From: a virus
DNA length: 48,368 nucleotides
Direction: 5' to 3' (one strand)
IMG/VR virus record: IMGVR_UViG_3300048907_000042
Under the pieces are notes generated by a model. The model saw only the letters and a list, made by a program, of their open reading frames with translations, was not told the origin of the DNA and ran no database searches. Below are positions 1,154-47,795 of the stretch, piece after piece. The position numbers and the translations under genes are program-made. Position 1 is the stretch's first letter. Every line of letters begins with the position of its first letter.

Positions 1154-1170
1154 TGTCCCAAATTGGGACA
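1154..1170. repeat. 17-bp palindrome TGTCCCAAATTGGGACA, copy 1
   Basis: Exact motif, intergenic, 6 nt after the stop codon at 1145-1147. Confidence 0.95.
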
Positions 1171-1376
1171 CGTCTAGATACTGTTACAGTGTTTAGATGT
1201 TTTTGCGTTGCAACCCGGCATCCCCGTGCCTTAGCTTTAAAAAGACAAAAAAAAAAGAATGAAAGAACTAACGGGCATGGGGGGTTGCAACGTGATAACA
1301 TGTAAACATTCCAACATTCCTGGGACCGATGACGGTTCTAGTCCGCACCAACGGGAAGTATAGAGGGAGAAAGGTA

Positions 1377-1664
1377 ATGGATAAGAAGGGACCAATGGAG
1401 GATGCTGTGTTGCGCCTGTCGGGCAAGATGGCTACTCCGCATGTGCAGGGCAACCTGCCCATTGACGAGTACAGCGTGGAGACTACCGTCAATGAAGCTG
1501 AGCGGGAAGTAGTGTTGAAGGCCAATGCTATGCTCACGCTAGCGGATCACATCGACGAAACTGTGTATCCGCAGGGTGGCAGTCGGCCTGTTGGACGGCT
1601 CACTCGTAGTGAGTGGGACTTGATTTGCTACGCACTGCGGTATACCGCCGACAGTGACAACTGA
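1377..1664 (+). CDS. hypothetical protein
   Basis: ORF 1329-1664 trimmed to ATG 1377, which is preceded by AGAGGGAGAAAGG. Confidence 0.55.
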   Translation: MDKKGPMEDAVLRLSGKMATPHVQGNLPIDEYSVETTVNEAEREVVLKANAMLTLADHIDETVYPQGGSRPVGRLTRSEWDLICYALRYTADSDN

Positions 1665-1680
1665 CAATGGGAGTGTGAAC

Positions 1681-2004
1681 ATGTGCCATCTGTGCATCGC
1701 GCAGGCTATCCTTAATGACCTTAAGGTTGACGCCGAGCGCTCCGGTGATCCGGTCCTCGAGGCCGAGTGTGAGGTGATGCAACGTCATCTCGATATGCGG
1801 CGTGCCCTCGACGAGAGCATCCTGCTGTGTGATTCTGTGCTGAAACACCAGCCGAACCATCCCATCGCTGCGCGGTTCCAGTTCCTGCGTGAGCGCATGG
1901 TGCAACTCGACCGGGCCATCTGTGATATGGGTCAGCAGATGGAAACCATCATCATGGCTGGCGACGTGCAGGCTACCGCACCCGGTAGCGATCGCGTCAA
2001 CTGA
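1681..2004 (+). CDS. hypothetical protein
   Basis: ORF 1654-2004 trimmed to ATG 1681 (GGGAG 7 nt upstream). Confidence 0.55.
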   Translation: MCHLCIAQAILNDLKVDAERSGDPVLEAECEVMQRHLDMRRALDESILLCDSVLKHQPNHPIAARFQFLRERMVQLDRAICDMGQQMETIIMAGDVQATAPGSDRVN

Positions 2005-2021
2005 CCGCACCATCTCGGTGC

Positions 2022-2051
2022 ATGGGCTGGGGAGGCAACTCCCTGGCCCAT
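2022..2051 (+). other. 30-nt imperfect palindrome / hairpin (ATGGGCTGGGGAGGCAACTCCCTGGCCCAT)
   Basis: Read directly. It lies between genes ending at 2004 and starting at 2071. Only a weak T-tract follows, so terminator status is uncertain. Confidence 0.3.
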
Positions 2052-2070
2052 TGCCGTTTCCGGAGGTTGT

Positions 2071-2370
2071 ATGTCACGCATCTATTCGACGGATTACTGC
2101 GAGTACACGTGCCCTGCCGTGGACGATGCAGCCGAGTCCGCACTTGACGACCTGAAGGAAATGGTGCCAAGTAGGCTGCACGCCGACCTCGACCGCACCA
2201 TGACCAACCTGATCCACGAAGTGAAGCACAGTGGTACTGAAAAGCTCCGGACTGCACTGGAGCGATGCTGTACGGACCTGCAAGAGGCCCGACTCGAACT
2301 GGCGGCAGCCGAGCTGCACGTCCAGCAACTCCAACATCAACTCGACAACATGGTGGTAGCTTATGAATGA
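2071..2370 (+). CDS. hypothetical protein (coiled-coil-like C-terminus)
   Basis: 99-aa ORF with GGAGG 5 nt upstream. Confidence 0.6.
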   Translation: MSRIYSTDYCEYTCPAVDDAAESALDDLKEMVPSRLHADLDRTMTNLIHEVKHSGTEKLRTALERCCTDLQEARLELAAAELHVQQLQHQLDNMVVAYE

Positions 2371-2953: not shown

Positions 2954-2954
2954 T

Positions 2955-3559: not shown

Positions 3560-3725
3560 GGCGGCTGGCAAAATCCGTAACAAGCAAATGGCTATGTATG
3601 CCGACGTAGGTCTCGGCTTGCAATGGCAGGATAGCCCTGGCACTCAGCACATGATTGAGATTATGAAGTCGCTGAGGAAACTCTGCTACACTGTTAACGA
3701 TGGGAATCTCGACTATGCATTCTAA
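3336..3725 (+). CDS. SLOG / DUF2493-like nucleotide-binding protein
   Basis: GTG 3336 follows GGAGGG. Motifs VIFGSR, GMAQGIDTAA and ADWD..GK.AG..RN are typical of the DUF2493/SLOG family (from memory). Confidence 0.6.
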   Translation: MKLVIFGSRPKYLPQGFSLNMQVDLIASAVEKFQLQPTEIVTGMAQGIDTAAIIYARNVNLKIKPFRADWDVDGKAAGKIRNKQMAMYADVGLGLQWQDSPGTQHMIEIMKSLRKLCYTVNDGNLDYAF

Positions 3726-3948
3726 CGTCGACTTGAGGACGGCGATCATTCTCGCGGCTGTCCTCCTCCGTGACAACGGAGACACATACACCGCAACGCT
3801 CGAAAACATCCGGGAGATTACCGACCGCGACTGGATCATCACCAAGAACCACAACCCGGATGGCTCGGTGACCTTCACCCTGACCGAGAACACAGTTCAC
3901 CCCAACCAGATGGCTCTCCATCTGCCCAACAGCCACACAGGAGATTGA
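3715..3948 (+). CDS. hypothetical protein
   Basis: ORF 3700-3948. The start is ambiguous (ATG 3700 or 3715). Confidence 0.45.
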   Translation: MHSNVDLRTAIILAAVLLRDNGDTYTATLENIREITDRDWIITKNHNPDGSVTFTLTENTVHPNQMALHLPNSHTGD

Positions 3949-3950
3949 CC

Positions 3951-4376
3951 GTGGAAAACGAAGAATACACCCCGGAACAGATGCACGCCATGCAGATGGA
4001 TGCGTGGGCGGGCCTGCACATCAACCAGCTCGCCGAGCTGACTCACGCGCTCAATCGTCAGGTTGGCTGGTGGAAAGAGTACGATGAAATGCCTGAGAAG
4101 TATCGCAAGCACTTCATCGCCGGCAAGCTGGCACTGGTTCACAGTGAAGTCAGCGAGGGTCTGGAAGGCTTCCGTAAGGGCCTGATGGATGACCATCTGC
4201 CGCACCGCCCGATGGTGGAAGTGGAAATGGCAGATGCCATCATCCGCATCCTGGACCTCGCCGGTGCTATGAACCTCGACCTGGGTGGCGCCGTCGCTGA
4301 GAAGCTGCTCTACAACACTCAGCGTCCCGACCACAAGCTGGAAAATCGGGAGAAGGATGGAGGGAAGTCGCTGTGA
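3951..4376 (+). CDS. MazG-like nucleoside triphosphate pyrophosphohydrolase
   Basis: GTG 3951 lies 7 nt after AGGAG. The pattern LVHSEVSEGLEGFRKG...EVEMADAIIRILDLAG...EKLLYNTQRPDHK is the MazG-type EExxE/D helical pattern. Confidence 0.7.
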   Translation: MENEEYTPEQMHAMQMDAWAGLHINQLAELTHALNRQVGWWKEYDEMPEKYRKHFIAGKLALVHSEVSEGLEGFRKGLMDDHLPHRPMVEVEMADAIIRILDLAGAMNLDLGGAVAEKLLYNTQRPDHKLENREKDGGKSL

Positions 4377-4561
4377 AGGACGAACGCATGTGCGTAGGCA
4401 TGTCGGAAGGTGAAGTCTGCAACCGCAACGAGTGTCAGGGTACCATCGAACTCGAAGACGGTGAGGACTGCGCCTGCCACATCAGCCCACCGTGTCACTA
4501 CTGCCTCGAACGCAGGTTCGTCTGCACTGCCTGTGGCATCTGCCCGGACGAAGAAACGTAA
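4373..4561 (+). CDS. Cys-rich (about 10 Cys) putative zinc-binding small protein
   Basis: GTGA overlap with the upstream stop. CxxxC/CxC/CxxC spacing suggests zinc binding. Confidence 0.55.
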   Translation: MKDERMCVGMSEGEVCNRNECQGTIELEDGEDCACHISPPCHYCLERRFVCTACGICPDEET

Positions 4562-4590
4562 CCAATCAGATTGGGGCACGGGGCAACTCG

Positions 4591-4607
4591 TGTCCCAATT
4601 TGGGACA
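4591..4607. repeat. 17-bp palindrome TGTCCCAATTTGGGACA, copy 2
   Basis: Exact motif, intergenic. Confidence 0.95.
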
Positions 4608-4641
4608 CCCCTAGAAGTCACACGAACCACGGAACTCTTTC

Positions 4642-5190: not shown

Positions 5191-5211
5191 ATCCTATTGC
5201 AATAGGGATTG
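5190..5211 (+). other. imperfect palindrome AATCCTATTGCAATAGGGATT (possible terminator/operator)
   Basis: Read directly. It starts at the stop codon of 4642-5190 and abuts promoter-like element R2. Confidence 0.3.
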
Positions 5212-5244
5212 AATTATTGGCGCTGGAATCCGTCGTAACACATG
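5209..5244 (+). promoter_or_regulatory. conserved bipartite promoter-like element R2 (TTGAAT-N16-CGTCGTAACACATG)
   Basis: 28/36 identical to R1 with the same spacing. It lies 32 nt upstream of ATG 5276. Confidence 0.5.
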
Positions 5245-5275
5245 TAACCCGTATCAGCCGCATGGAGACGCACAG

Positions 5276-5623: not shown

Positions 5624-5624
5624 C

Positions 5625-6005: not shown

Positions 6006-6006
6006 T

Positions 6007-6225: not shown

Positions 6226-6295
6226 GACTCCGCCCATGCACATTCTAACGAGTGTGCATGATCGGCAATCCTGCCGGAACCAGCAAGGAAAGGCT

Positions 6296-7757: not shown

Positions 7758-7920
7758 GGATGCCAACGAGCTGGTCCGAGTTCGTACCCGCGCACAGTAC
7801 CAAGCGCAATCAGTACTCACCGGGTTGACCTTCCGTGATGGAAGCTCGGTGTGCCCGCCGCTCACCCTCGAGCAGGCATTCGACGTACTGTGGTGGTCAC
7901 GGCGCTACATCGTCACGTAA
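7747..7920 (+). CDS. hypothetical protein
   Basis: ORF 7675-7920 trimmed to ATG 7747, which overlaps the upstream stop. Confidence 0.45.
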   Translation: MTSEDANELVRVRTRAQYQAQSVLTGLTFRDGSSVCPPLTLEQAFDVLWWSRRYIVT

Positions 7921-7924
7921 GGAG

Positions 7925-7941
7925 CGTCCCAATTTGGGACA
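7925..7941. repeat. palindrome CGTCCCAATTTGGGACA, copy 3 (15-nt core exact)
   Basis: The core spans 7926-7940. It sits between AAGGAG (7919-7924) and ATG 7947. Confidence 0.95.
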
Positions 7942-7946
7942 CTACT

Positions 7947-8153
7947 ATGGCTACCCGCAAACGTGTAAGACCGGAATCTTTCCGGGGCCAACTCTGCACC
8001 CACGTGGCTAAGATCGCAGCGTTCTGTGATTGCGGCCACCCGGAGAAGGCCAAGCCACATGCAATAGCGTTGCAAAAAATGCTGATAGAACGGGGGTTGC
8101 TTGTTGACGTGCCCGCGCGCACGTGTGACAATGGACCCCACAGCGGCAAATGA
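7947..8153 (+). CDS. hypothetical protein
   Basis: ORF 7851-8153 trimmed to ATG 7947, 5 nt after the palindrome. Confidence 0.5.
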   Translation: MATRKRVRPESFRGQLCTHVAKIAAFCDCGHPEKAKPHAIALQKMLIERGLLVDVPARTCDNGPHSGK

Positions 8154-12368: not shown

Positions 12369-12659
12369 ATGCCCATCACCGAAGAGTCTGTCCGCCTGAA
12401 TGCTGAGGTTCTTCCTCAGCACATGCGGGAGGGGGCTGTCGGCTACGTCCTCTACGGATGGGAGCCGGGTAGTTTCCTGCAGGCAGTACTGCGCAACGAC
12501 CTGATCGACGCCGCAGCCAACGCTGATGACGTCAACAAGTACGCGTTGCACATGTGGGCTGTTTTCGTTTATAATGCTGTTCCGGCAGCAGCTCGCGGGT
12601 CGGCTGATGCTATCCGCCTGTGGCATAAGCAGGGGGGATTGCTCCGTGGCCAACGCTAA
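12369..12659 (+). CDS. hypothetical protein
   Basis: 96-aa ORF with AAGGAG upstream. Confidence 0.55.
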   Translation: MPITEESVRLNAEVLPQHMREGAVGYVLYGWEPGSFLQAVLRNDLIDAAANADDVNKYALHMWAVFVYNAVPAAARGSADAIRLWHKQGGLLRGQR

Positions 12660-13446
12660 GGACGCACGTGGTCACGCAGTCAAACGCATCCTCATGCTGG
12701 GTGACACGGGCGGAGGCAAGACCTCCCAACTCCTGACCCTCCCCGGCAAGAAGTTCGCATACCTGTTCGACTCGAACGGGCTGCTGTCCCTGCAGGGACA
12801 CGATGTGGACTACGAGGAGTTCCTGCCCGACCGCATCAACCTGTCCGCACAGTCCCTGTCGAAAGGCAAGGGCGACAAGAACTCCAACTACCAGTCCAAC
12901 CTGTACGCGGAATGGGAGAAGGACTTCAACAAGCGGATCGACTCGGGCTTCTTCGATCCGTACAGTGTCATCGCACTCGACTCGGCTACGACGTTCCTCG
13001 ATGCTATCATGGATCGAGTGCTGACGATCAACGGCCGCTACGGTGAAGTCCCCCAGCAGGATGACTACGGTCCTCAGATGCTGGCGTTTACGAACGTGGT
13101 CCGTCAGCTGGTCGCGCTGGGCAAGACGATCTACATGACTGGCCACATCGAAACGAAGCAGGACGAACTGACGAAGCGCATCTTCAACCGGCCTATGATG
13201 ACGGGCCGGCTGCGTGTCAAGATTCCGCTGCTGTTCTCTGAGATCTTCGTGGCCGATGCCTCGGAGTCGCAGGGCAAGGTGACCTACCGTATCCAGACTG
13301 CACCGGACCGGCTGAACACCACGATTCGTACTTCCATCAAGGGCCTCAACCCGTTCGAGGATGTGACTGTCGATTGGGATAAGGACCCTGTTGGACAGGG
13401 GCTGGGTGGCATCCTCGCGTGGGAAGCCAAGCAGCACAAAGCATAA
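12646..13446 (+). CDS. AAA_24-type P-loop ATPase (Sak4/RecA-like recombination-associated)
   Basis: GTG 12646. ILMLGDTGGGKTS (Walker A) and VIALDSATTF (Walker B-like). It is adjacent to a DUF669-like gene, as in many phages. Confidence 0.75.
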   Translation: MANAKDARGHAVKRILMLGDTGGGKTSQLLTLPGKKFAYLFDSNGLLSLQGHDVDYEEFLPDRINLSAQSLSKGKGDKNSNYQSNLYAEWEKDFNKRIDSGFFDPYSVIALDSATTFLDAIMDRVLTINGRYGEVPQQDDYGPQMLAFTNVVRQLVALGKTIYMTGHIETKQDELTKRIFNRPMMTGRLRVKIPLLFSEIFVADASESQGKVTYRIQTAPDRLNTTIRTSIKGLNPFEDVTVDWDKDPVGQGLGGILAWEAKQHKA

Positions 13447-13450
13447 CTGG

Positions 13451-13467
13451 TGTCCCAATTTGGGACG
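13451..13467. repeat. palindrome TGTCCCAATTTGGGACG, copy 4 (15-nt core exact)
   Basis: The core spans 13452-13466, 4 nt after the stop at 13444-13446. TGGGAC-N15-CGTC has the same geometry as R1 and R2. Confidence 0.95.
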
Positions 13468-13531
13468 CTAGTTAACCCCGCCGTCCACCTGCATCCGGCA
13501 GGCACGGTATCAACCAACCAAGAGAAAACAC

Positions 13532-14014: not shown

Positions 14015-14052
14015 CAGGGGACTTTCGAGTCCCCTGGGGTTTTCCCATTTTT
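14015..14052 (+). terminator. rho-independent terminator
   Basis: CAGGGGACT-TTCG-AGTCCCCTG forms a 9-bp stem with a tetraloop, followed by GGGTTTTCCCATTTTT. Confidence 0.75.
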
Positions 14053-15019: not shown

Positions 15020-16369
15020 GTGGCCAAGCAACTGATGGAAGGCGAGCGCAAGGACAAGATGCGCTATGTAAAGCTCGGCGAAATCACTGTCGAGGATCGT
15101 GCCCGTGAGGACTATGGGGACCTCGAAGAACTCATGGAGTCGATCAAGGAGAAGGGCGTACTCCAGCCCATCACCTTGGCACTGAAGGATGACGGTACGC
15201 TGAAGCTGCTGGCAGGTGGCAGGCGTTACGAGTCGTCGCTGCGTCTGGGCTTGCCCACGGTGCCGGCTATCATCCGTGAGGGTGAGACGGAAATCACTGA
15301 GCTGGAAATCGAACTCATCGAGAACGTCCATCGCAAGGACTTCACGTGGGTGGAGAAAGCCAACCTCACTGATCGCATCGACCAGCTGTACAAGTCGAAG
15401 GATTCCAACTGGTCAGGTCGCAAGACCGCGATCCTGATCGACCGCAGCAAGTCTGACGTCAACCGGGACATTCAGCTGGCGCGTGCCATGACTGTGATTC
15501 CCGAACTCGGGGAGTGCAAGACTGCCGATGATGCCCTCAAGCGCCTCAAGAAAATCGAAGAAGGTGCGGTCGTCGACCTGCTCCGCAAGCGTCAGGCAGA
15601 GCGCATCGAGACTGTCGAAACCGACAACTCCGGCAACGGGCTTGACAAGGGCATTGCAGCTGCTCTCCGCGTCGCCGACTCAGCCTACATTGTCAAGGAC
15701 TGCTTTGAAGGAATGGCAGGACTCAAGACGAACGGAAGCATCCAGATCATTGAGTGCGATCCGCCTTATGGTATCGAGCTGAACGAACAGAAGGCAGGTA
15801 AGGATTCCGTTACCTCCACCGTGACCGGCTACAAGGAGGTTGAGCGTGACGAGTACGCAGGGTTCCTCAAGAAGCTCGCCGAGGAACTGTTCCGGGTTGC
15901 GGGTAAGGATTGCTGGCTGGTGTTCTGGTATGGCCAGACTCACCATCAGCTGGTGCTGGAATCCCTGCGCGCTGCTGGCTGGCTGGTGGATGAAATCCCT
16001 GCTGCTTGGGTTAAGCCCAATGGCCAGACTCTTCAGCCAGAACTGTACTACGCCCGCTGCTGGGAACCCTTCTTCCTGTGCCGCAAGGGCAAGCCCGTCA
16101 TGGCTGAACGTGGACGTAGCAACGTCTTCCAGTTCAACGGAGCAAGCAACAAGTACCACCCCACTCAGCGACCGCTCGATCTGATCGAAGCGATCTTCAA
16201 GACCCTGAGCGTGGGCAATGAACAGGTATTCGTACCGTTCCTCGGCAGCGGAGCGACGCTGCGGGCAGCCTTCAACATGGGTTTGAGGGCGTTTGGGTAT
16301 GACCTCGACGGCAAGTACAAGGACAAGTTCATGCTGGCAGTCGAGGAAGATACTCGCGAAAACTTCTAA
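15020..16369 (+). CDS. ParB-like N-terminal domain fused to beta-class N6/N4 DNA methyltransferase
   Basis: LQPITL...GGRRY (ParB-N), then IECDPPYGI (motif IV) before FVPFLGSGAT (motif I). Confidence 0.85.
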   Translation: MAKQLMEGERKDKMRYVKLGEITVEDRAREDYGDLEELMESIKEKGVLQPITLALKDDGTLKLLAGGRRYESSLRLGLPTVPAIIREGETEITELEIELIENVHRKDFTWVEKANLTDRIDQLYKSKDSNWSGRKTAILIDRSKSDVNRDIQLARAMTVIPELGECKTADDALKRLKKIEEGAVVDLLRKRQAERIETVETDNSGNGLDKGIAAALRVADSAYIVKDCFEGMAGLKTNGSIQIIECDPPYGIELNEQKAGKDSVTSTVTGYKEVERDEYAGFLKKLAEELFRVAGKDCWLVFWYGQTHHQLVLESLRAAGWLVDEIPAAWVKPNGQTLQPELYYARCWEPFFLCRKGKPVMAERGRSNVFQFNGASNKYHPTQRPLDLIEAIFKTLSVGNEQVFVPFLGSGATLRAAFNMGLRAFGYDLDGKYKDKFMLAVEEDTRENF

Positions 16370-20382: not shown

Positions 20383-20585
20383 AACTCACCGACGCACACC
20401 CGGATAGGATGGGCAAACCCATCGCTATCAACATCGACAGCATCGTTGCTATCCGGGAACATCAGATCCATCCCGACACTCCCAATGCAGATAAGATGAG
20501 GACCATCATCATCACAGATGCAAGTGCGAAGGGATTCGTTGTGCAGGAGACGTTCGAGAAGATCACCAACTCGCTTCCCAACTAA
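20367..20585 (+). CDS. hypothetical protein (possible paralog of 20170-20382)
   Basis: 72-aa ORF with GAGGAGGG upstream. Confidence 0.55.
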   Translation: MARFLKLTDAHPDRMGKPIAINIDSIVAIREHQIHPDTPNADKMRTIIITDASAKGFVVQETFEKITNSLPN

Positions 20586-20602
20586 TGTCCCAAATTGGGA
20601 CA
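20586..20602. repeat. 17-bp palindrome TGTCCCAAATTGGGACA, copy 5
   Basis: Starts immediately after the stop TAA 20583-20585. It is followed by ACAGGAG and ATG 20617. Confidence 0.95.
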
Positions 20603-20616
20603 ACAGGAGCAAAGCA

Positions 20617-21048
20617 ATGGCACTGAAGATCAAGTGGCTGGACCGGCGCATGAACAGGCTGCCGTACTTCACCCTGGCCGGTACCGACAAGTTGTACCGT
20701 GAAGCCTGCGCCCACATCGGAGTGGCGTATCCCACGGCCTGGTTGCCGGGCCATCAGTACGGGGCGGTGACGCACTTCTGCAAGAACCAGGAAGGCGATA
20801 CCGTACTCATCGTGGGAATGGACATTCTGCACCATGCGACGTCTACGGTGGATCAGGTGACGATCCTCTCCATGCTGGTCCACGAAGCATCTCACATCGT
20901 GGATGAGTTCTTCGAGGGTATCGGTGAACACAAGCCGGCCAGCGAGCAGCGGGCCTATGCTCTGCAGTACGTCAGCGAGGAACTCTTCGCTGAATATCGC
21001 AGGCAAAAAGAAGCCCTCACTGGGAGGGCTTTGAAGAAGAAGCGTTGA
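20617..21048 (+). CDS. putative zinc metallopeptidase (HExxH)
   Basis: ORF 20518-21048 trimmed to ATG 20617. Carries the LVHEASHIVDEF motif. This is the last gene of the plus arm. Confidence 0.5.
   Translation: MALKIKWLDRRMNRLPYFTLAGTDKLYREACAHIGVAYPTAWLPGHQYGAVTHFCKNQEGDTVLIVGMDILHHATSTVDQVTILSMLVHEASHIVDEFFEGIGEHKPASEQRAYALQYVSEELFAEYRRQKEALTGRALKKKR
21003..21030 (-). terminator. rho-independent terminator of the minus arm (possibly bidirectional)
   Basis: The minus strand reads AGCCCTC-CCAGT-GAGGGCT followed by TCTTTTT. It overlaps the last Rz codons and the 3' end of the plus-strand gene. Confidence 0.55.
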
Positions 21049-22838: not shown

Positions 22839-23163
22839 TACTCAGCTCCGGGTTCAGGAGAATGAAGTCTCCATTCTCGGTAACGATGAAGTCTCCATTG
22901 GCCCCAAGCAACTGAGGCTCCATGAAGGGTACGAAAACATCTGCGGGCATGGCCTGAGTCCACGGTGGAATCTGTACGTCCTCAGTACCACGCACGAAGT
23001 CTTGCGGCTGACGCGGCTCCCAATGTTCAGGGCAGACGTAGTAACCCTGCCAATGCCTGCGCAGGGTACTACCTTTCTTCTTTCTGCCACACTCATAGCA
23101 TACAGCATTCCAGTCGCCATGTGCGTAGTAGTCGGAGCCGCCCTTTCCGTCACGGACGCTCAC
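22825..23163 (-). CDS. conserved podovirus virion-module protein with CxxC...CPEHW motif
   Basis: GTGA coupling to the upstream giant gene. Motif HGDWNAVCYECGRKKK...YVCPEHWEPRQPQDFVRG. Confidence 0.6.
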   Translation of the reverse strand: MSVRDGKGGSDYYAHGDWNAVCYECGRKKKGSTLRRHWQGYYVCPEHWEPRQPQDFVRGTEDVQIPPWTQAMPADVFVPFMEPQLLGANGDFIVTENGDFILLNPELSNGES

Positions 23164-28484: not shown

Positions 28485-28497
28485 TACAATCTCCTGC

Positions 28498-28514
28498 TGT
28501 CCCAATTTGGGACA
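28498..28514. repeat. 17-bp palindrome TGTCCCAATTTGGGACA, copy 6
   Basis: Intergenic. On the minus strand it is followed by GCAGGAG and ATG 28484. Confidence 0.95.
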
Positions 28515-28527
28515 TTAGTGGGCTCGG

Positions 28528-35791: not shown

Positions 35792-36166
35792 TTACCTCGG
35801 GATGAGTGGGTTCTGCTTGGCGAAGTGAAGCGTCATCGAGTAGTTGCCGGCAGCACTGGTAATCAGTACGTCGCCGTTGGAAGTGCCGCCAGCATTCCTG
35901 TTCGGGATGCCGCCGATCTTTTTGTAGCAGATGGTCTGACCGCTGCCCTCACTGATCGTGAGGAAGTCCTGACCACCATCGAACTCGAGCAGAACCGTCT
36001 CAGCAGGTTCCACATCGTAGGATACCCGCATCAAGCGGACACCCTGACACGGAGGGTTGAGTGCCGATACATCAACCAGAATCGCAGCAGCATCTGCCGA
36101 AGTTCCGATTACCTGCAGCACCAAGTTGCGCTGACCCTCCTCAACGACGATCGTCGAGAATGCCAT
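35792..36166 (-). CDS. virion-module protein, unknown function
   Basis: ORF trimmed to ATG 36166. 124 aa. Confidence 0.55.
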   Translation of the reverse strand: MAFSTIVVEEGQRNLVLQVIGTSADAAAILVDVSALNPPCQGVRLMRVSYDVEPAETVLLEFDGGQDFLTISEGSGQTICYKKIGGIPNRNAGGTSNGDVLITSAAGNYSMTLHFAKQNPLIPR

Positions 36167-36173: not shown

Positions 36174-36212
36174 TCCAAAAAGGCCCGCCTCCGGATGCGC
36201 CCAGAGGCGGGC
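36174..36212 (-). terminator. rho-independent terminator
   Basis: The minus strand reads GCCCGCCTC-12 nt-GAGGCGGGC followed by CTTTTTGG. Confidence 0.7.
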
Positions 36213-36295
36213 AAAGCGTGGCCGGGATAACACCTCGGCGAAGGCGCCGCAGTGGCCCTAGCGGGCCAGCACCGCGCCAGCCGACGGTGCGCGAG
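36213..36295 (-). other. GC-rich conserved non-coding element X1 (homologous to 47630-47778)
   Basis: Shares AGGTGTTATCCCGG and GTCGGCTGGC.CGGT.C.CTGGCC blocks with X2. Confidence 0.45.
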
Positions 36296-37073: not shown

Positions 37074-37113
37074 GAAGAAAAAAGGGCCCTAAGATTTGCA
37101 TCGTAGGGCCCTT
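37074..37113 (-). terminator. rho-independent terminator after the capsid gene block
   Basis: The minus strand reads AAGGGCCCT-14 nt-AGGGCCCTT followed by TTTTCTTCC. Confidence 0.8.
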
Positions 37114-37146
37114 GGTGGTATTACTTGTCTATGTGTTTGGTACTGG

Positions 37147-37163
37147 TGTCCCAAATTGGGACA
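37147..37163. repeat. 17-bp palindrome TGTCCCAAATTGGGACA, copy 7
   Basis: Directly abuts the stop TAA of 37164-37310. Confidence 0.95.
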
Positions 37164-37310
37164 TTACTTCTTGCGCTTGGCCGAGGGTTTGTTGGTTGCA
37201 GCTCCGAAAGCGGCGTCCATCCACTTGGTAGCAAGGCGACCTCCCGGGCTCTTGGCAGAGGCCGCCTTCTTCTTCGCAGCTACGCGGTCAGCATCCTTCT
37301 TGCTGGCCAT
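37164..37310 (-). CDS. small Lys/Ala-rich basic protein (48 aa)
   Basis: ATG 37310 lies 4 nt after the capsid gene stop. Sequence MASKKDADRVAAKKKAASAKSPGG...KRKK. Confidence 0.4.
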   Translation of the reverse strand: MASKKDADRVAAKKKAASAKSPGGRLATKWMDAAFGAATNKPSAKRKK

Positions 37311-37314
37311 GACC

Positions 37315-38235
37315 TTACGGACCGTTCGAGCCGTAGATACCGCGAGCGTCGGTGGCACCCACAGAGAAGCGCATGTAGGTGGCAGCCTTCGCGTTCTTGG
37401 TATCGAAGTCGTTGTCCTGATCGAACTCCGGCTTGTTGCGCATGAACATCTGCATACCCTGCGGCACGTTCGTGCGGACGAACCAGGCTCCCGGATTGTT
37501 GAAGTAGTGGTTCACCTTCGTACCGCCCGGGAAGGCGTTGGTTGCCTTCAGAACGTTGATCGCATTGTTGCCGGTCGAGGCCTGCAGCACCGACTTCAGG
37601 ATGCGTTCCGCGTTGAAGAACTCCTGCGTTGCGATGTGCAGGGTCTTCGGCATCACCGAGATCTTGAGGCCACGCGAGTTGGTGGCGTTCATGATCTGGA
37701 TGCACATGTCCTCCAGGGCCGCCTCACTCAGGTCCGCACCCGGAGTCAGCGCGTTCGAGAACGTGCCGCCCGGAGCGTTGACGTGGGCCGCACTGATCAG
37801 CGGCTGGCCGTCGGGCATGAGGTAGTAGGCGCCTGCGAAGGCATCGTTGTAGATCAGGGCGGCAACGTTCTCGATGGTCTGCGAGACCGAGAACGCATTG
37901 GCCTTCGCGCGACGGGTCGAGACTTCCTTGTACAGGTTGTCGTCCAGTTCTTCCTTGGTCACGATGTAGCCCAGCGCATAAGCGATATGCGCATAGGTCG
38001 ACACCCAACCCTGGATCTCCGAGTCGTACTGAACGGGTGCGCCCTGGCCCTTGACGGGTGCCAGACCGAAGCCGGTCACTTCGACGTCCTGCTCGTAAGC
38101 CTTCGCGGAGGTCAGCTGATCGAACAGGTCCGTGTACTCGGTCGGATGCTCGTTGTAGATCTGGCCCCAGATCGCGTGGATGCCGGGCCACAGGAGCTTC
38201 GGATGCGAAGCAGTATTGATTACGCCACCGGGCAT
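37315..38235 (-). CDS. major capsid protein candidate
   Basis: 306-aa ORF in the head module, downstream of the scaffold gene and upstream of a strong terminator. No family identified by eye. Confidence 0.55.
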   Translation of the reverse strand: MPGGVINTASHPKLLWPGIHAIWGQIYNEHPTEYTDLFDQLTSAKAYEQDVEVTGFGLAPVKGQGAPVQYDSEIQGWVSTYAHIAYALGYIVTKEELDDNLYKEVSTRRAKANAFSVSQTIENVAALIYNDAFAGAYYLMPDGQPLISAAHVNAPGGTFSNALTPGADLSEAALEDMCIQIMNATNSRGLKISVMPKTLHIATQEFFNAERILKSVLQASTGNNAINVLKATNAFPGGTKVNHYFNNPGAWFVRTNVPQGMQMFMRNKPEFDQDNDFDTKNAKAATYMRFSVGATDARGIYGSNGP

Positions 38236-42972: not shown

Positions 42973-42984
42973 TAATTCACCTTG

Positions 42985-43001
42985 TGTCCCAAATTGGGAC
43001 A
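42985..43001. repeat. 17-bp palindrome TGTCCCAAATTGGGACA, copy 8
   Basis: Lies between the TerL stop (43006) and the portal SD/ATG (42972). Confidence 0.95.
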
Positions 43002-43005
43002 GTTC

Positions 43006-44478
43006 TTAGTAGCCAGTGACAGAGCGCCGACCTTCATCTGCGCCACGCGTTTGCTCAGACATGCGGAGCTCCTCGAGCTCCTCCTCAGTCATGAAGTCTT
43101 CTTCATCGACGTCCGCGTCGAGGTCGAAACCCTTGACTGCATACACAGTACTGTCGAATCTGTCGTCCAACAGGGCCTCAGTTACGCCCGTGAAGGTCAG
43201 CAGTTCCGCCTTATACGCTTGATACCACGACGCTTGCGTGTCGTAGCGCATACCACCCGCCCTGTGGCGCTTCTTGTAGCCCTGACCGCGCACAGCTTTG
43301 TCCTTCGACGCCACGATAGGGCGGAAATCAATCCAGTGATCCCGCGCCATCATCTCTTTATCGATGAAAGGCTTGACCGAATCCCAAATCTGCCCCTTCT
43401 CAACGATCCAATACTCGGGCTGATACATAGAATCGAAGTCAAACATCTCATCGACCCACTCATCTGACTTCCATCGGTCAGCAACATGGCCGATGATGTG
43501 GACAAGGTTGTCAGTCGACTGACCTGCGGCGGTAAATGCAGTCTGATTAGCCGAATCTTTCTTCGTTACAGCGAAGTCGGCGCCACAAACTACCCGCTTG
43601 GGCTTCTCGTAGTCCTCAATCTTCATCGGAATGAAGCCTTCCTCGCGGAGATAGGCCTCATTACTATCCAACGGGGTGTTCAGGAACTCCTGAGAGTAGC
43701 CCGGACCGTCGCCATCTTCCTCAAATTCCTTCTGTTTCTCACGAAGATCTGCTTCGGTCCAGCGATCTGGCCACAGCAACTCAGTGAAATCGCTGTAACT
43801 CTTGTGCGCCTTGAAGAACAGGTGCTTCCAAACCTTGTTGACGCGCAGTCGGGACAGCAGCGAGTCCATGTGCAGGATAGTTCCGTGCACGCGGATCTTA
43901 CCACGCTTGCTCAACGCCTGCTTAGCCGCACGGAAGAACCACTTGCGGAACTTAACTCGGCGTTCTTTGTTCTCAACCTGCTCGTCATCTTCCATATCGT
44001 CGCAGACGATAAGGTCAGGACGCATACCATTCCACATTGCACCACGAATCTTCTGCTCAGCGCCGCGAGCCAGGATGCGGAAGCGGTGACCATCGCCGAA
44101 CTTCACGATGATTTCCGTCTTCTGCTCCGTCTCGAAGCCCACGATATCGAAGTCCCGACGCAGATCTTCGTTCGTGTTGATCTCTTCCGCAATGTTCGAC
44201 AGCTGCTCAGCCGCCTTCGGTTCCGTGGAGCCGATGATGATGACGTACTGCGACGACCGGAAACAGACCTCGGCCATCGTATAGTCGTATGTCAGCGCGG
44301 TAGACTTCGCATGATCTCGAGGCGCGATGACCATCGCCTGCTTTTCATCCGAAGTGTACAGCGCCCACGCCTCGCGATGGAATTGAGGCGTGGGCTTTGC
44401 GTCGTCGTAACGGCCTGACAGGTACACACCTGCAAAGCCTTCCACAATGTCTGCGTTGAGCTTGACCTTGGATTTCAT
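43006..44478 (-). CDS. terL: terminase large subunit
   Basis: VIAPRDHAKST (Walker A-like) and DLIVCDDMEDD (Walker B). The C-terminal nuclease part and the 490-aa size fit T7 gp19-type proteins. Confidence 0.85.
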   Translation of the reverse strand: MKSKVKLNADIVEGFAGVYLSGRYDDAKPTPQFHREAWALYTSDEKQAMVIAPRDHAKSTALTYDYTMAEVCFRSSQYVIIIGSTEPKAAEQLSNIAEEINTNEDLRRDFDIVGFETEQKTEIIVKFGDGHRFRILARGAEQKIRGAMWNGMRPDLIVCDDMEDDEQVENKERRVKFRKWFFRAAKQALSKRGKIRVHGTILHMDSLLSRLRVNKVWKHLFFKAHKSYSDFTELLWPDRWTEADLREKQKEFEEDGDGPGYSQEFLNTPLDSNEAYLREEGFIPMKIEDYEKPKRVVCGADFAVTKKDSANQTAFTAAGQSTDNLVHIIGHVADRWKSDEWVDEMFDFDSMYQPEYWIVEKGQIWDSVKPFIDKEMMARDHWIDFRPIVASKDKAVRGQGYKKRHRAGGMRYDTQASWYQAYKAELLTFTGVTEALLDDRFDSTVYAVKGFDLDADVDEEDFMTEEELEELRMSEQTRGADEGRRSVTGY

Positions 44479-44487
44479 ATCTTGGCC

Positions 44488-46704
44488 TTAGCAGGAGACG
44501 CCCCACGGAGGACGTGGCAACGTCCAGCTGGTTGCGCCAGTGTCGAAGTCGACCGGCTCGACGGGGATGAGTTCTACGCACCACGAAGACAGGTCGCGAT
44601 CAAAGGCTGTCGCATCCTGGAACATGGCATCCATCTGCACGACCTTACTCACATCCCAGAAGCGGATGTTCTGGTTGAAGAGCCCAGCCTGCCTGAACAT
44701 GGAGTTCATCTGCAGCACCAGCGCAGGGTTCCACCCGGTGATATCTTGGTTGAACAACGTAGCACTGAAGAACATGAAGTCCATGTAAATCACCTTCGAC
44801 ACGTCCCACGAACTCAGGGGCTGATCGAAGTTGATACACGACGCGAACATAGCCCCCATATCCACAGCCTTCGCTGTGTTGAAGTGATTCACGGGCTGGT
44901 TGAAGCTGAGTGCGTTGGCGAACATGCCTCCGAAGTCGGTGACCTGCGACGTGTCCCAGCCCAGCAGGCTACCATTGAACGTCCAGCAGAACGCAAACAT
45001 CTGATGCGTGCGCGTGACCTTCGCCGTGTTCCAGCTCGACGCGTCGAAGTTCAGGAACCGGCACCCAGCGAACATATCCGCGAAGTCCTCAGCGTTGGCT
45101 ACGTTCCAGCCGCTGAGGTCCTGCGCGAAGTTCATGATCAGGGGCTCTTCCGGGTCCGTCGCACTGGTGAATCCGGAGAACATCAGGTCGAAGAACCGCG
45201 CCGTGCCCACGTTCCAACCACCGATATCTCGGTTGAAGGACGTAGCCCGCATGAACATTCCCTCGAAGTTGATGGACTTCGCAACGTTCCATCCACTAAT
45301 GTCCGCATTGAAGTTCGGGCAACCCTGGAACATACGATTGAAGCCCAGCCCCTCGCCTACGTTCCACGACGAGATGTCACGGCTGAAGTCCATCGGACCC
45401 ATCGGCTGGTCGTAATTGCCGATAGCGGCAGCGAACATCCTGCCGAATGCGATACACTTCGATGTGTTCCAGTTGTCGATGTTTCCGTTGAAACGGACCG
45501 CGCGCTGGAACATGCCCTGCAGATCAATCGCATTGCCTACGTTCCAGTTATTCAGGTCCTGGTTGAAGGCCCAGCAATCACTGAACATGAAGGGGAAGAG
45601 CGTACCGGCTGCCACGTTCCAGTTATTCAACGGCTGGTTGAACACACGGCAGTGCTCGAACATGTTACTGAAGTTCGTGCACGCGCCTACGTTCCAGTTG
45701 TTGAAGGGCTGATTCAGCGCCCAGCAATTCTGGAACATCTGCCGAAGCTCGGTAGCATTCGACACGTCCCAGTTGTTGATGTTCCTGTTGAAGGCATGGC
45801 AGCCATTGAACGTATTGCTGAAGCTCGTACCGCCACTGACGTCCCACCCAGCCAGCGGTCGGTTGAAGATCTCGCAGCCATCGAAGACCGTGCCAAAGCC
45901 ATACTGCCCGCCGATGTTCTTCGTGTCCCAGAAGGTTACACCACCAGCGTTGAAGAACGTGCAGTTCTGGAACATGCCAGTCAGCACCAGCAGAGTATCT
46001 GCAAGGTACGAGGGGACGATGCTCAGGTCCTGATTGTTCTGATACCTTGCCTGGCGCAGGCCGACCAGACCGAAGTTGTCGATACTGATCGTGGACACGC
46101 CAGGGGCTGCGGCCGACTGGATGCCGTGGCAGGTGCCAGTGATCTTGATCTGATACGTGCCCGGAGCTGCGTACAGATGATCCTTGATTGCGAAGTTGCT
46201 GGTCTGGTTCACAGTCTCGATAGCCGAGCCATCACCCCAGTCCACGGTGCACGCCACCTCAGGTTCCAACGCAGGCACGACCGCGTAGGTACGACCGAGG
46301 AACAAGGTCTTGGTCGAGCCGATCTCCGTGACCAGCACGGTCTCGCGGTACACCGGGTCAGTGGGCGGGAACGGCAGCGGGAAGGTTTCAACCTCCGGTG
46401 CGAAGTCCACTGCAAACTCGACAACCGCTGACACTTCCCGACCAAGACTGGTGGAAAGCACAGCGGTTGCTTCATACATAGCGCCGATGGTTCCGCGCTT
46501 CACAGAGATACCGACTGACGTGCGCGAGATCTGCGAACCGTCCAGCACGTCATTGGGGGAGGGATCTTCGCCAAGGGTAGTCACGGCCGAGACGGAAGTG
46601 ACCGAACCCAGCGACTCACCTTTGAGCAACGCAGACGACAGGTCGATCCAGTACGTCACTCGCTCCTTGTCGAACTTGATAGGGGCGATCAGCCGAACGG
46701 CCAT
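44488..46704 (-). CDS. BspA/DUF285-type leucine-rich-repeat protein with N-terminal Ig-like and PKD-like domains
   Basis: Roughly 17-20 tandem units of about 25 aa of form W(D/N)VS....M..MF..A..FN..(I/L)..W span nt 44538-46068. A PKD-like signature VDWGDGS...H.Y..PGTY.I sits at about 46128-46263. Confidence 0.8.
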   Translation of the reverse strand: MAVRLIAPIKFDKERVTYWIDLSSALLKGESLGSVTSVSAVTTLGEDPSPNDVLDGSQISRTSVGISVKRGTIGAMYEATAVLSTSLGREVSAVVEFAVDFAPEVETFPLPFPPTDPVYRETVLVTEIGSTKTLFLGRTYAVVPALEPEVACTVDWGDGSAIETVNQTSNFAIKDHLYAAPGTYQIKITGTCHGIQSAAAPGVSTISIDNFGLVGLRQARYQNNQDLSIVPSYLADTLLVLTGMFQNCTFFNAGGVTFWDTKNIGGQYGFGTVFDGCEIFNRPLAGWDVSGGTSFSNTFNGCHAFNRNINNWDVSNATELRQMFQNCWALNQPFNNWNVGACTNFSNMFEHCRVFNQPLNNWNVAAGTLFPFMFSDCWAFNQDLNNWNVGNAIDLQGMFQRAVRFNGNIDNWNTSKCIAFGRMFAAAIGNYDQPMGPMDFSRDISSWNVGEGLGFNRMFQGCPNFNADISGWNVAKSINFEGMFMRATSFNRDIGGWNVGTARFFDLMFSGFTSATDPEEPLIMNFAQDLSGWNVANAEDFADMFAGCRFLNFDASSWNTAKVTRTHQMFAFCWTFNGSLLGWDTSQVTDFGGMFANALSFNQPVNHFNTAKAVDMGAMFASCINFDQPLSSWDVSKVIYMDFMFFSATLFNQDITGWNPALVLQMNSMFRQAGLFNQNIRFWDVSKVVQMDAMFQDATAFDRDLSSWCVELIPVEPVDFDTGATSWTLPRPPWGVSC

Positions 46705-46705
46705 G

Positions 46706-46996
46706 TTAATCACCTATGACGGAAATGAGAATGCCTTGGTTGTAGACGTTACCAGCAGTGGTCTTCACCGAACACCACACTCGGTAGATGACTCCTACGG
46801 TACCGCCGATGAAGTTGAACGTCACATTCTGCCGGTCGTAGCGAGTCAGCGCGTATGTGAGAGTGGGATTGAGCTCTTCGCCGTAAGCGGTCTCAACGGT
46901 GATGCCAGCTTCAAGCAGCGTCTCACCAACGGGCATCCGCTGACCGAAGTCAAACAGATGCGTCACGTCCCCACTCGGAGTCTTGGAAGGGTTCAT
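46706..46996 (-). CDS. small Ig-like protein, paralog of the N-terminal domain of 44488-46704
   Basis: 96-aa ORF. The pattern D.G..L..GE.L.......V.........L..........V.F.F.GGT.G..Y.V...V.T..G.V......I.V is shared with residues 20-105 of the downstream protein. Confidence 0.65.
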   Translation of the reverse strand: MNPSKTPSGDVTHLFDFGQRMPVGETLLEAGITVETAYGEELNPTLTYALTRYDRQNVTFNFIGGTVGVIYRVWCSVKTTAGNVYNQGILISVIGD

Positions 46997-47139
46997 CCAC
47001 CGGCACCCTTCGGCAGACCAGTACGACCGCCGGCCTTCTTGATGGCACGCGGCTTCTTATCCTTCTTGGACTTAACCGGCTTTACTTTCGCCTGTCCGAA
47101 CTTCTGTGAACTCCGCGTCGACGATGGTTTGAGTGCCAT
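46993..47139 (-). CDS. small Lys-rich basic protein (48 aa)
   Basis: ATG 47139 lies 7 nt after AGGGAG. ATGA coupling to the next gene. It overlaps the 3' end of 47072-47629 out of frame. Confidence 0.45.
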   Translation of the reverse strand: MALKPSSTRSSQKFGQAKVKPVKSKKDKKPRAIKKAGGRTGLPKGAGG

Positions 47140-47629
47140 GACGTGCTCCCTTTGCAAGTGATTCGAGGCGCTTCGCCATAGCCGCCAGTCGATCTTCATC
47201 GACCTCGTTACTACGGGCCAGCGGGTCAGGTCGGCCGATGCGCTTGGTGAGTTCGCCCATCAGGCGCACTGCACGCAGCTTATCCTGCGGACCCCCGTTC
47301 TTCATCGTGTCAATCACTACATCGACCGCAGTCTCGTAGCTTGCCTCCAGCCGTACCTGTGCTGCCGCAGACTTCTCCGCGATAGCGGCTTGGATCAGCG
47401 GCTGACGAAGCAGCATCGAGATATAAACCGGGGTGAGGCCGCAAATCTGTGCGACCTGAACATTCTTCATACCCTGCGCGAGGAGAGCTACAACCTCCAA
47501 GTGCTTCGGGGTAAGCTTCTTCAGAATCCATTTCTCACGCGTCGTGTCGAGTTCGGTGGATTCCTTAACATCATCATCCTCCTGGAAGCCCGGGAGGGAC
47601 GACTCGACGTACTCATCATTGTCTGCCAT
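47072..47629 (-). CDS. HTH DNA-binding protein (LuxR/sigma-region-4-like HTH); small terminase subunit or late regulator candidate
   Basis: LTPKHLEVVALLAQGMKNVQVAQICGLTPVYISMLLR fits the LT..E.EV..L.A.G..N..IA......TV HTH pattern. An acidic N-terminus precedes it. Confidence 0.6.
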   Translation of the reverse strand: MADNDEYVESSLPGFQEDDDVKESTELDTTREKWILKKLTPKHLEVVALLAQGMKNVQVAQICGLTPVYISMLLRQPLIQAAIAEKSAAAQVRLEASYETAVDVVIDTMKNGGPQDKLRAVRLMGELTKRIGRPDPLARSNEVDEDRLAAMAKRLESLAKGARHGTQTIVDAEFTEVRTGESKAG

Positions 47630-47778
47630 CTGAGGTTCCTATGCCCTGCGGGCGTCCGAGGCGGCTGCGCCGCTCAGGGAAAAGCGGCTCCGGGATAACA
47701 CCTGCGGCCAGCGGACCGGCCAGCCGACTGCCTCGCGGAAGCCGACCGGCCGATCCCTGTCGCGTCGTTCGCCAGATG
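47630..47778 (-). other. GC-rich conserved non-coding element X2 (homologous to 36213-36295)
   Basis: 148-nt gap between palindrome 9 and ATG 47629. It shares sequence blocks with X1 and contains internal GGCCGGTC(G/C)GCT sub-repeats. Confidence 0.45.
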
Positions 47779-47795
47779 TGTCCCAAATTGGGACA
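47779..47795. repeat. 17-bp palindrome TGTCCCAAATTGGGACA, copy 9
   Basis: Exact motif, intergenic, 18 nt after the stop at 47814. Confidence 0.95.

Follow-up and report, generated by a model that had tools for sequence, protein, structure and literature searches.

Introduction

The genomes of Cluster O mycobacteriophages contain a 17-bp inverted repeat (5'-TGTTCGGNNNCCGAACA, of the form TGTTCGG-NNN-CCGAACA), for which a dimeric DNA-binding protein was suspected by the authors and whose function was not established (PMC4351075). Likewise, no function was established for an 18-bp inverted repeat, GATCAACCNNGGTTGATC, identified in Microbacterium phages of Cluster EG (PMC7302621). The present analysis concerns a multi-copy inverted repeat of a podophage, the 15-bp palindrome GTCCCAAWTTGGGAC, found in the 48,368-nucleotide viral record IMGVR_UViG_3300048907_000042 of IMG/VR (the whole of this stretch is referred to below as the window). 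Its copies, which are not situated at promoters, occur inside the two long arms of transcription where co-directional genes or modules meet, and we tentatively interpret them as dyad-symmetric operators inside operons, where a putative bound protein would modulate read-through at the boundaries of modules.

Results

Copies of the palindrome and their placement in the genome

Exact searching of the window for GTCCCAAWTTGGGAC revealed nine copies, starting at positions 1155, 4592, 7926, 13452, 20587, 28499, 37148, 42986 and 47780, and none were obtained in 100 dinucleotide-preserving shuffles of the window (expected count 0), which confirmed the number given in an initial annotation of this DNA. 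The sole near-copy (2 mismatches, position 23717) is located within the giant open reading frame (ORF). The initial annotation had also listed a 17-mer, in which the 15-mer is flanked by T and A, for every copy; this form is intact in seven of the nine, and the copies at 7926 and 13452 are flanked by C...A and T...G, respectively. Searches of the window against Rfam (E ≤ 1) and a tRNA scan gave no matches.

The window was assembled as a circle, its ends overlapping by 127 nt, and corresponds to a genome of 48.2 kb with 57% G+C. The plus arm (approximately 480–21048) comprises early and replication genes, encoding a ligase, an SF1 helicase, a PD-(D/E)XK nuclease, a Sak4-like protein, SSB, an exonuclease, a ParB_N-methyltransferase fusion, a UDG/exonuclease, PolA and a DUF3987 primase-helicase. 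The minus arm, which runs from approximately position 92 across the assembly junction to 21017, carries the genes for the tail fibre, TerL, portal, capsid, connector, a 1,774-aa virion protein and lysis. Given this circular arrangement, the copy at 47780, 3' of ORF 47814–48137, belongs to the late arm and not to the divergent region.

All nine copies are located in co-directional intergenic DNA, which constitutes about 6% of the genome (p ~1e-11), and none in the divergent (95–480) or convergent (approximately 21011–21031) region. As had been proposed, they partition both arms, into blocks of 1.6–8.6 kb, and bound functional modules. In every case a stop codon lies 1–30 nt before the copy, with no other element in between, and at five copies the next Shine-Dalgarno (SD) sequence or ATG lies 2–15 nt past the motif; both the stop-codon adjacency and the closeness of an SD or ATG at 7947, 20617, 28484 and 42972 agree with the earlier description. 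The sites are listed below as the 27-bp units defined in the next section (related contigs are denoted throughout by L numbers).

1149–1175 (15-mer 1155–1169), plus strand: copy 1, 7 nt past the TGA of ORF 935–1147; an intrinsic terminator (1170–1205) lies directly 3', with a stem at 1170–1200 followed by TTTTT.
4586–4612 (15-mer 4592–4606), plus strand: copy 2, 30 nt past the stop of ORF 4373–4561; the next ATG (4642) is 35 nt on.
7920–7946 (15-mer 7926–7940), plus strand: copy 3, between the SD TAAGGAG (7918–7924) and the ATG at 7947.
13446–13472 (15-mer 13452–13466), plus strand: copy 4, 5 nt past the TAA of the Sak4-like gene 12526–13446; the SSB gene is 65 nt on, and the flanks lengthen the hairpin stem to 14 bp with two G.U pairs.
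20581–20607 (15-mer 20587–20601), plus strand: copy 5, 1 nt past the TAA at 20583–20585; an SD, AGGAG, begins 4 nt downstream, with the ATG at 20617.
28493–28519 (15-mer 28499–28513), minus strand: copy 6, 14 nt past the stop (28528) of a 403-aa gene; the ATG (28484) of the 1,774-aa virion protein is 14 nt on, a junction shared with L209 and L073.
37142–37168 (15-mer 37148–37162), minus strand: copy 7, 1 nt past the TAA of a small ORF after the major capsid gene; an intrinsic terminator (37078–37113) lies 34 nt downstream.
42980–43006 (15-mer 42986–43000), minus strand: copy 8, 5 nt past the TAA of TerL; the ATG (42972) of the portal gene is 13 nt on.
47774–47800 (15-mer 47780–47794), minus strand: copy 9, 19 nt past the TGA of ORF 47814–48137; an approximately 20-bp GC hairpin (47713–47757) follows, and a TerS-like helix-turn-helix (HTH) gene is about 150 nt on.

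The small ORF preceding copy 7 (37164–37358, minus strand) encodes a lysine-rich product of 64 aa ending in KRKK*, and its first 44 nt are shared with the end of the major capsid gene (37315–38235). Its C-terminus is conserved in L125, L263 and L266, and it could be a small gene in its own right or could extend the capsid protein by frameshifting.

Extent of the conserved unit and symmetry of its flanks

The length of 15–17 bp originally assigned to the element proved too short, as the conserved flanks define a dyad of about 27 bp, A-S-T-N-N-T-GTCCCAAWTTGGGAC-A-N-N-A-S-T (spelled out, A-S-T-N-N-T-GTCCCAA-W-TTGGGAC-A-N-N-A-S-T), in which the half-site cores are about 10 bp apart. C or G occupies the position ±5 outside the 15-mer in 18 of the 18 half-sites of the window, A is present at −6 in eight of the nine copies, T at +6 in six, T at −4 in seven and A at +4 in six. 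The outer S positions are conserved on both sides and are mutually complementary in just four of the nine copies. Isolated half-sites outside the palindromes are neither over-represented nor depleted.

For comparison of the two flanks, 53 instances of the motif from approximately 15 genomes were oriented by the direction of transcription. The counts were as follows:

A at −6 outside the 15-mer: upstream 42/53, downstream (reverse-complemented) 35/53.
C or G at −5: upstream 53/53, downstream (reverse-complemented) 48/53.
T at −4: upstream 36/53, downstream (reverse-complemented) 33/53.
T at −1: upstream 49/53, downstream (reverse-complemented) 51/53.

The two C/G positions are uncorrelated, being pairable in 24 instances compared with 24 expected by chance (n=53). 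Flanks that are symmetric and do not pair argue for a symmetric dimer on duplex DNA, since an RNA stem provides no rationale for them. In addition, the central base flips between A and T, even between near-identical genomes, as would be explained if the same duplex site were seen from either strand.

The transcribed palindrome could form a hairpin with a 7-bp stem and a 3-nt AWU loop. The predicted free energy of this structure is −9.0 kcal/mol for the window type, with values of −6.6 and −6.9 and down to −3.6 and −1.0 (L122 lineage) elsewhere, so its stability is not the conserved property. In L166, GTGCC, GTCCC and GTTCC arms are mixed within single, normally placed sites and the resulting mismatches are uncompensated. 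In about 95% of the instances, complementarity (A-W-T) is retained at the outer “loop” positions.

The dimer reading also accounts for the preferred distances from the stop codon, TAA+1 and TAA+5: these are the two positions at which TAA is compatible with the conserved flank, (A)A-S-T-A-N-T. On the opposite flank, the mirror block shares its sequence with the SD, as A-N-N-A-G-G. Judging from these overlaps, the site is packed between the stop codon and the SD.

Conservation and concerted variation in related genomes

A DNA search of GenBank phages revealed no relative of the window, and the best TerL matches among these phages are 35–38% identical, so the experimental literature is not directly applicable. 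Relatives were found in a large family of podophage contigs of 43–48 kb in IMG/VR and in metagenome, Logan and metagenome-assembled genome (MAG) collections. Scanning IMG/VR with the motif gave mostly single chance matches, and only multi-copy contigs were informative; searches with single-protein loci recovered one relative for the giant protein and four for PolA. Strand assignment by ORF length is unreliable at 57% GC, and synteny and gene calls were used instead. Host assignment from MAG bins was abandoned, as the taxa were contradictory (Cellvibrionaceae, Rhodoferax, Anaerolineaceae and Acidobacteria).

The GTCCC motif of the window is common to L263–L266, L125, L126, L128, L143, L210 and L204, where it occupies orthologous junctions, and the proteins of these relatives are just 50–85% identical to those of the window. 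The search of related genomes suggested by the initial annotation therefore found the motif present at orthologous positions and not absent from relatives. Conservation covers four junctions of the late arm, namely those that precede the HTH (putative TerS) gene and the giant gene and those that follow TerL and the capsid gene. At the same junctions, every copy has the form TGTTCCA-NNN-TGGAACA in L124, L127, L209, L240 and L268, and all copies are GTGTTCAAAWTTTGAACAC in L121, TGTAACAATTTGTTACG in L154 and ATTCACAWTGTGAAT in L122 and L203. Thus, the lineages differ in their variants (GTCCC, GTTCC, GTTCAAA, GTAACAA or ATTCACA), and within a lineage all copies change together. L209, which is the closest distinct relative by its capsid protein (86% identity), has the GTTCC form at four of the four late junctions. 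Copies have stayed the same even between genomes in which synonymous sites are saturated.

That copies are uniform within each genome and switch in concert from one genome to another points, on the basis of sequence comparison, to a trans-acting reader of the sequence; selection for folding alone would not be expected to yield this pattern.

The junction after TerL is variable in its length. In L121, L122, L124 and L127 an extra 260–690 bp, containing a small gene, is present just 3' of the motif (e.g. L124:4212–4903), the window and L128 have no such insert, and in more distant relatives the TerL stop overlaps the portal start (TAAATG or TGATG). Genes seem to be inserted preferentially at this junction, which carries the motif.

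Distant relatives (L179, L189, L195, L198, L199 and others) contain four to nine longer palindromes built on R-TTA-N8-TAA-Y, such as GCGCGGATTAC-N6-GTAATCCGCGC and CGCGATTAAT-N4-ATTAATCGCG (e.g. L198:14257–14290 and L189:14566–14595), at junctions comparable to those of the window, for example after the capsid gene. Their flanks are asymmetric and track the direction of transcription (with a T-rich 5' flank and TAAATAAC 3' of the palindrome), and in L228 one palindrome of this type is followed by a T-tract, resembling a terminator. No excess of G.U on the sense strand was observed in these TTA-N8-TAA palindromes (4 G.U, 9 A.C, 14 other). They may represent a different system.

Evidence for folding of the transcript

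Several observations concern the RNA form of the element. At 7926, the ribosome-binding site (RBS) is split by the motif, in the order TAAGGAG, 1 nt, hairpin, 6 nt and ATG. The same arrangement is found in L263, L264, L266 and L027, and the 6-nt spacer varies in sequence (ACTACT, AGACCT, ACAACT or AACACT). The earlier proposal that folding could bring this SD into range is thus supported by a geometry conserved in five genomes, in which the folded hairpin would set the SD about 7 nt from the AUG. Since a split RBS of this kind needs the hairpin, the mRNA must be read through the site at 7926 uncut.

At 4592, an alternative hairpin of 11 bp can be formed, in which the upstream segment 4570–4580 (ATTGGGGCACG) pairs with the left arm at 4589–4599. 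The upstream copy, which resembles the right arm (TTGGGGCACG), is conserved. The upstream element has the form TTGGGGCA(C/T)G, and L266 carries a compensatory C→T/G→A change. The region 4570–4599 may be an RNA switch or may contain a third half-site.

In relatives, the junction after the capsid gene combines a GC hairpin, the motif and/or an intrinsic terminator. Its presence beside such structures indicates that the motif adds something beyond a plain hairpin. In our reading, the transcript-level features reflect local adaptation to an element whose transcription is unavoidable, or use made of it.

Candidate binding proteins

The initial annotation had suggested, among other hypotheses, an operator for a dimeric DNA-binding protein of the phage. 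As a class this is the best-supported explanation, on the strength of the symmetric unpaired flanks and the mixed half-sites; the two candidate proteins named at that time are both disfavoured. The HTH protein 47072–47629 (minus strand), described as LuxR/sigma-r4-like, is clade-specific and gave weak matches to LuxR-type HTH domains. Its AlphaFold2 model consists of an HTH followed by a long helical hairpin, for which the top Foldseek results, none of them at E ≤ 0.001, were 2AO9 (the phBC6A51 nonamer; prob 0.99, E 0.04), the NV1 small terminase 7JOQ and then LuxR-type HTHs. 2AO9 is described as a putative small terminase, and the modelled fold suggests that the HTH protein is probably a small terminase (TerS) as well. 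Its recognition helix varies (PV, KE, VQ, PT or PE) among genomes sharing GTCCC and is identical in L124 (GTTCC) and L122 (ATTCACA). The protein was rejected as the reader of the motif on account of this lack of covariation and its TerS-like fold. Between the TerS-like gene and TerL lie genes for a Gp77-like adaptor and a DUF285 tail-fibre protein.

The second candidate, the ParB-N protein 15020–16369, is a fusion of ParB_N (residues 27–104) with an N6/N4 DNA methylase (residues 241–435), and domain searches detected no HTH in it; a parS/ParB system was rejected on these grounds. Pfam searches with 30 small early ORFs revealed no DNA- or RNA-binding domain, the sole hint being a sub-threshold HTH_27 match in 3700–3948. 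A family of 182-aa proteins encoded beside copy 2 was considered as a ribbon-helix-helix protein and rejected (predicted local distance difference test score 71, no PDB match at E ≤ 0.001); its N-terminal strand does not covary with the motif. Homology searches among the more than 70 ORFs detected no integrase, repressor or XRE-type HTH. A reader encoded by the host is also possible.

A sigma factor domain in the virion protein and other predicted elements

The 1,774-aa protein (23160–28484, minus strand), a putative ejected virion protein, carries an N-terminal SLT lytic transglycosylase domain (residues 58–157) and a complete extracytoplasmic function (ECF) sigma factor domain (residues about 864–1070; approximately 25275–25895 of the window), with Sigma70_r2 at residues 887–956 and r4_2 at 1015–1066. 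The sigma domain matches SigW and SigE in PDB sequence searches (1e-11 to 1e-12) and is conserved in the giant proteins of relatives (59% in L209; 27–30% in L020, L204 and L203). This suggests that a sigma factor may be delivered with the virion; a literature search gave no earlier description of an ejection protein containing a sigma factor. Pfam, PHROG and PDB sequence searches identified just the SLT and ECF sigma domains in this protein, the remaining ~1,400 residues being covered by sequence search only. No gene for an RNA polymerase was found, and no other ORF is large enough. The DUF285 protein 44488–46713, considered as a polymerase, is of the tail-fibre type instead.

Candidate ECF-type promoters, TGAAT(T/A)-N15-CGTC, are present on the plus strand at 403–437 (weaker), 477–511 and 5210–5244, i.e. 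at the start of, and inside, the early arm. The two best, at 477 and 5210, share TGAATT...TCCGTCGTAACA(T/C)ATG, and in L263, L264 and L266 both keep the −35 and −10 elements and differ in their spacers. They are probably targets of the virion sigma domain, and would drive the early arm. The structural (late) arm is headed by a near-consensus sigma70 promoter, TTGACA-17-TATTAT (11/12 positions; 161→133, minus strand), located upstream of two small ORFs and copy 9. Such a strong host-type promoter ahead of the late genes implies that a block or gate lies downstream of it.

An identical 14-mer, AGGTGTTATCCCGG, occurs at 36222–36235 and 47690–47703 (minus strand), followed in both cases by a similar (A/C)(G/C)C..GCTTT.CCC sequence. 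Both sites are intergenic in the late arm, before the TerS-like gene and before the gene 35792–36150, amid GC-rich hairpins, and they may constitute a second regulatory element or a late promoter. Paralogous small early proteins (INWEGM..DL.ALAQQ.L..KLQ ... LSPEE) are encoded two or three times per genome (481–864 and 5595–6005, plus strand, in the window; also L128:502–855 and L027:732–1067). In L128 and L027 a copy of the motif lies directly 3' of one paralogue.

Discussion

The explanation that we tentatively prefer is an operator of dyad symmetry placed inside the operons. A symmetric, sequence-specific protein, presumably dimeric and encoded by the phage or its host, would bind the 27-bp site and affect RNA polymerase in the course of elongation, serving as a roadblock or insulator; alternatively, the bound protein might modulate the terminators that follow several of the copies. 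Read-through from block to block would thereby be gated, with a logic like that of the mycobacteriophage L5 stoperators. A wider version, in which a symmetric protein at every module boundary gates the polymerase or reloads an antitermination factor, so that this genome-wide punctuation, together with the virion ECF sigma factor, would time both 20–27 kb arms of a virulent podophage from few promoters, seems to us unlikely.

A number of observations weigh against binding of a protein to the DNA. The 53 instances on which the flank symmetry is based come from related genomes and are hence not independent. The split RBS at 7926 and the compensatory change at 4592 indicate that RNA folding matters at some copies, and in L122 and L203, T is opposite G on the sense strand in four of the four imperfect copies (which also carry an A.C mismatch at the outermost pair). 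The copies at 1155, 37148 and 47780 precede terminator-like structures, and the site stays close to the preceding stop codon even where the intergenic region is long, as would befit an RNA 3'-end or antitermination element. Finally, no cognate DNA-binding protein was found among the HTH protein, the small early ORFs and the 182-aa family, and the phage, from its gene content, looks virulent, unlike the temperate phages in which stoperators and related operators were described.

It is therefore necessary to consider that the transcribed 7-bp/3-nt hairpin is itself read by an RNA-binding factor, either in antitermination (boxB/nut-like, with reloading every 3–9 kb) or in processing or stabilization of the transcript. 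We regard this as somewhat unlikely but as a serious rival, and it accounts for much of the placement: all copies are transcribed, co-directional and first after a stop codon; the first copy of each arm follows one or two small genes and precedes a terminator or large hairpin (1155 and 47780); and the copy at 37148 precedes two terminators (37078–37113 and 36183–36212). Moreover, no promoter separates the terminators inside the arms from the SD and ATG immediately 3' of them, which calls for some provision for read-through, and the lineage-wise concerted variants recall the way in which N and boxB co-evolve. The sense-strand U.G pairs of the L122 lineage, the split RBS and the alternative hairpin with its compensatory change count on the same side. 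A nut-like position, after an early promoter and before terminators, is occupied by the copies at 1155, 37148 and perhaps 47780 and not by those at 20587, 28499 and 42986. However, antitermination would be pointless at 20587, which is 460 nt from the end of its arm. Neither a boxA-like element nor an N-like or nuclease gene was recognized: the flank comparison yielded no conserved asymmetric element beside the hairpin that could serve as a boxA partner, and the small early ORFs belong to no detectable family, N-like proteins being unrecognizable from sequence alone. The unpaired symmetry of the flanks, the uncompensated mid-stem mismatches of L166, the very weak stems of the L122 lineage (−1 to −3.6 kcal/mol) and the complementarity of the outer loop positions likewise count against a function at the RNA level. 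The mRNA processing or stability hairpin proposed in the initial annotation is weakened by the 7-bp stem, by the unconserved stability and by the intact mRNA required at 7926, where cutting the hairpin would part the SD from the ATG, and it persists as a rival in the form given here. RNase III sites in particular were rejected, a 7-bp stem, as found in seven of the nine copies, being too short (the stem is longer just at 13452, 14 bp, and 4592, 8 bp). A purely structural hairpin that needs no factor, serving as an exonuclease barrier, a translation insulator or a device for cistron coupling, with identity maintained by the copying of new copies, appears quite improbable. The window-type hairpin does form in eight of nine local folds and usually lies 2–4 nt 5' of the SD or bridges SD and ATG, yet such a function predicts compensatory drift, which is at odds with copies that are identical within genomes and across synonymous-saturated genomes. 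Orthologous positions hold different lineage variants, so the copies are old and changed in concert; the stability of the hairpin is not conserved; and a plain hairpin would be redundant next to the strong GC hairpins and terminators after the capsid gene. As the earlier annotation had recognized, the copies are not classical terminators either: the 3' flank (A-C/N-N-A-S-T) is never T-rich despite the −9 kcal/mol hairpin, the next genes have no promoters of their own, the SD lies upstream of the hairpin at 7926, and a terminator scan flagged just the 42985 copy, on the non-sense strand. True intrinsic terminators were confirmed elsewhere, at 14035, 36183–36212 and 37078–37113.

The copies bound functional modules, an extra 260–690 bp is found just 3' of the post-TerL motif in relatives, and 27 bp is the size of a recombinase core site, all of which would suit sites of recombination or mobility, used for module exchange or insertion between co-infecting relatives or as targets of a nuclease or recombinase. 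Recombination between 17-bp repeats was also invoked for the indels of Cluster O (PMC4351075). Against this, no recombinase, integrase or homing-endonuclease gene was detected among the ORFs, the inserted genes are not flanked by two copies, 17 bp is short for homologous recombination and the positions of the sites are stable over long divergence, so that we judge the idea to have a poor chance, much like the structural hairpin. Site-specific nicks, as in T5, phiKMV-like or LUZ24/tf-like phages, are a very improbable function. Some copies do read TACT|GTCCC, resembling the tf consensus TACT/RTGMC, and the tf sites are asymmetric 9-mers, all on one DNA strand whatever the direction of transcription (PMC3517423). 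The present element, in contrast, is palindromic, and nicking of both strands would cut the genome; TACT directly precedes the motif in a minority of copies, and the flanks track the direction of transcription on both arms. The partial match was accordingly judged coincidental. N4 hairpin promoters, used by a virion RNA polymerase, have a 5–7 bp stem and a 3-nt loop, which the motif matches, and its right arm (GGGAC, GGAAC or TGAAC) resembles the −35 element of ECF promoters, as might be expected of a promoter for the phage's own sigma factor. Either kind of promoter is hardly to be entertained, however, and the N4-type alternative raised earlier was dropped. No RNA polymerase domain was found in any ORF, no conserved −10 element exists at the right spacing (none 16–17 nt past the right arm), a symmetric element would fire in both directions, an SD or ATG follows within 2–15 nt at five copies (6 nt at 7926), leaving often no room for a start, and a separate conserved ECF-type promoter, TGAATT-N14/15-CCGTCGTAACA, exists.

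Multi-copy short intergenic repeats have been reported in phages several times, as in Clusters O and EG, without a function, and the present family offers a clean case, with few copies, defined junctions, GTCCC and GTTCC variants at the same positions in close relatives and a footprint of 27 bp. If transcription is indeed gated inside the operons of a lytic phage, this would show how a long operon can be timed without internal promoters, and the sites would be compact, orthogonal insulator or roadblock parts. Lytic punctuation with a reader that switches specificity in concert with its sites would, if true, be a new regulatory layout. The comparison also defined a large group of uncultured podophages, including a virion protein that carries a sigma factor.

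Among described systems, the sites are best filed with the known and largely unexplained multi-copy inverted repeats. With the Cluster O repeat they share 7-bp arms around a 3-bp centre, TGT...ACA ends, arms that are invariant within a genome, an A/T-rich centre without orientation preference, the presence of many copies in short intergenic regions and conservation across related genomes. The Cluster O genomes differ in having more than 30 copies, about one third of them intragenic, compared with nine here, none of them within a gene; the repeat also differs in sequence, and the phages in host phylum and in type (siphophage, and podophage here), and the extended 27-bp dyad was not reported there. 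The Cluster EG repeat is similar in its 8–10 copies, its location in short intergenic regions 14–22 bp 5' of starts and its maintenance despite flanking divergence, and differs in its 8-2-8 geometry and in being start-associated and clustered at one genome end instead of being distributed over both arms.

Stoperators of L5 are asymmetric 13-mers with an orientation bias, at which bound repressor blocks elongating RNA polymerase, and the 17-bp conserved inverted repeats of phiC31 control early operons. Many identical sites in short intergenic spaces within operons are the common trait of the two systems, and the same trait is found in the window; both are temperate phages with a known repressor, whereas no repressor or integrase was detected here. 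To our knowledge, intra-operon control of this kind has been demonstrated experimentally only for the repressors of temperate actinophages. The nut site of lambda contains boxB, a phage-specific 15-nt hairpin that is recognized in its RNA form and co-evolves with its reader, N; it has a 5-bp stem, a GNRA-like pentaloop and a boxA partner, and is present in two copies per genome. Its location after the first early gene and before a terminator recalls the copies at 1155 and 47780, but the window contains nine copies, with symmetric unpaired flanks. The RNase III sites of T7 are intercistronic and lie at module boundaries, require roughly two turns of double-stranded RNA (~20 bp) and often have an internal loop. 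Intercistronic placement at the module boundaries of long transcripts is common to those sites and the present ones, which are distinguished by 7-bp stems and identical sequences, while the T7 sites vary in sequence.

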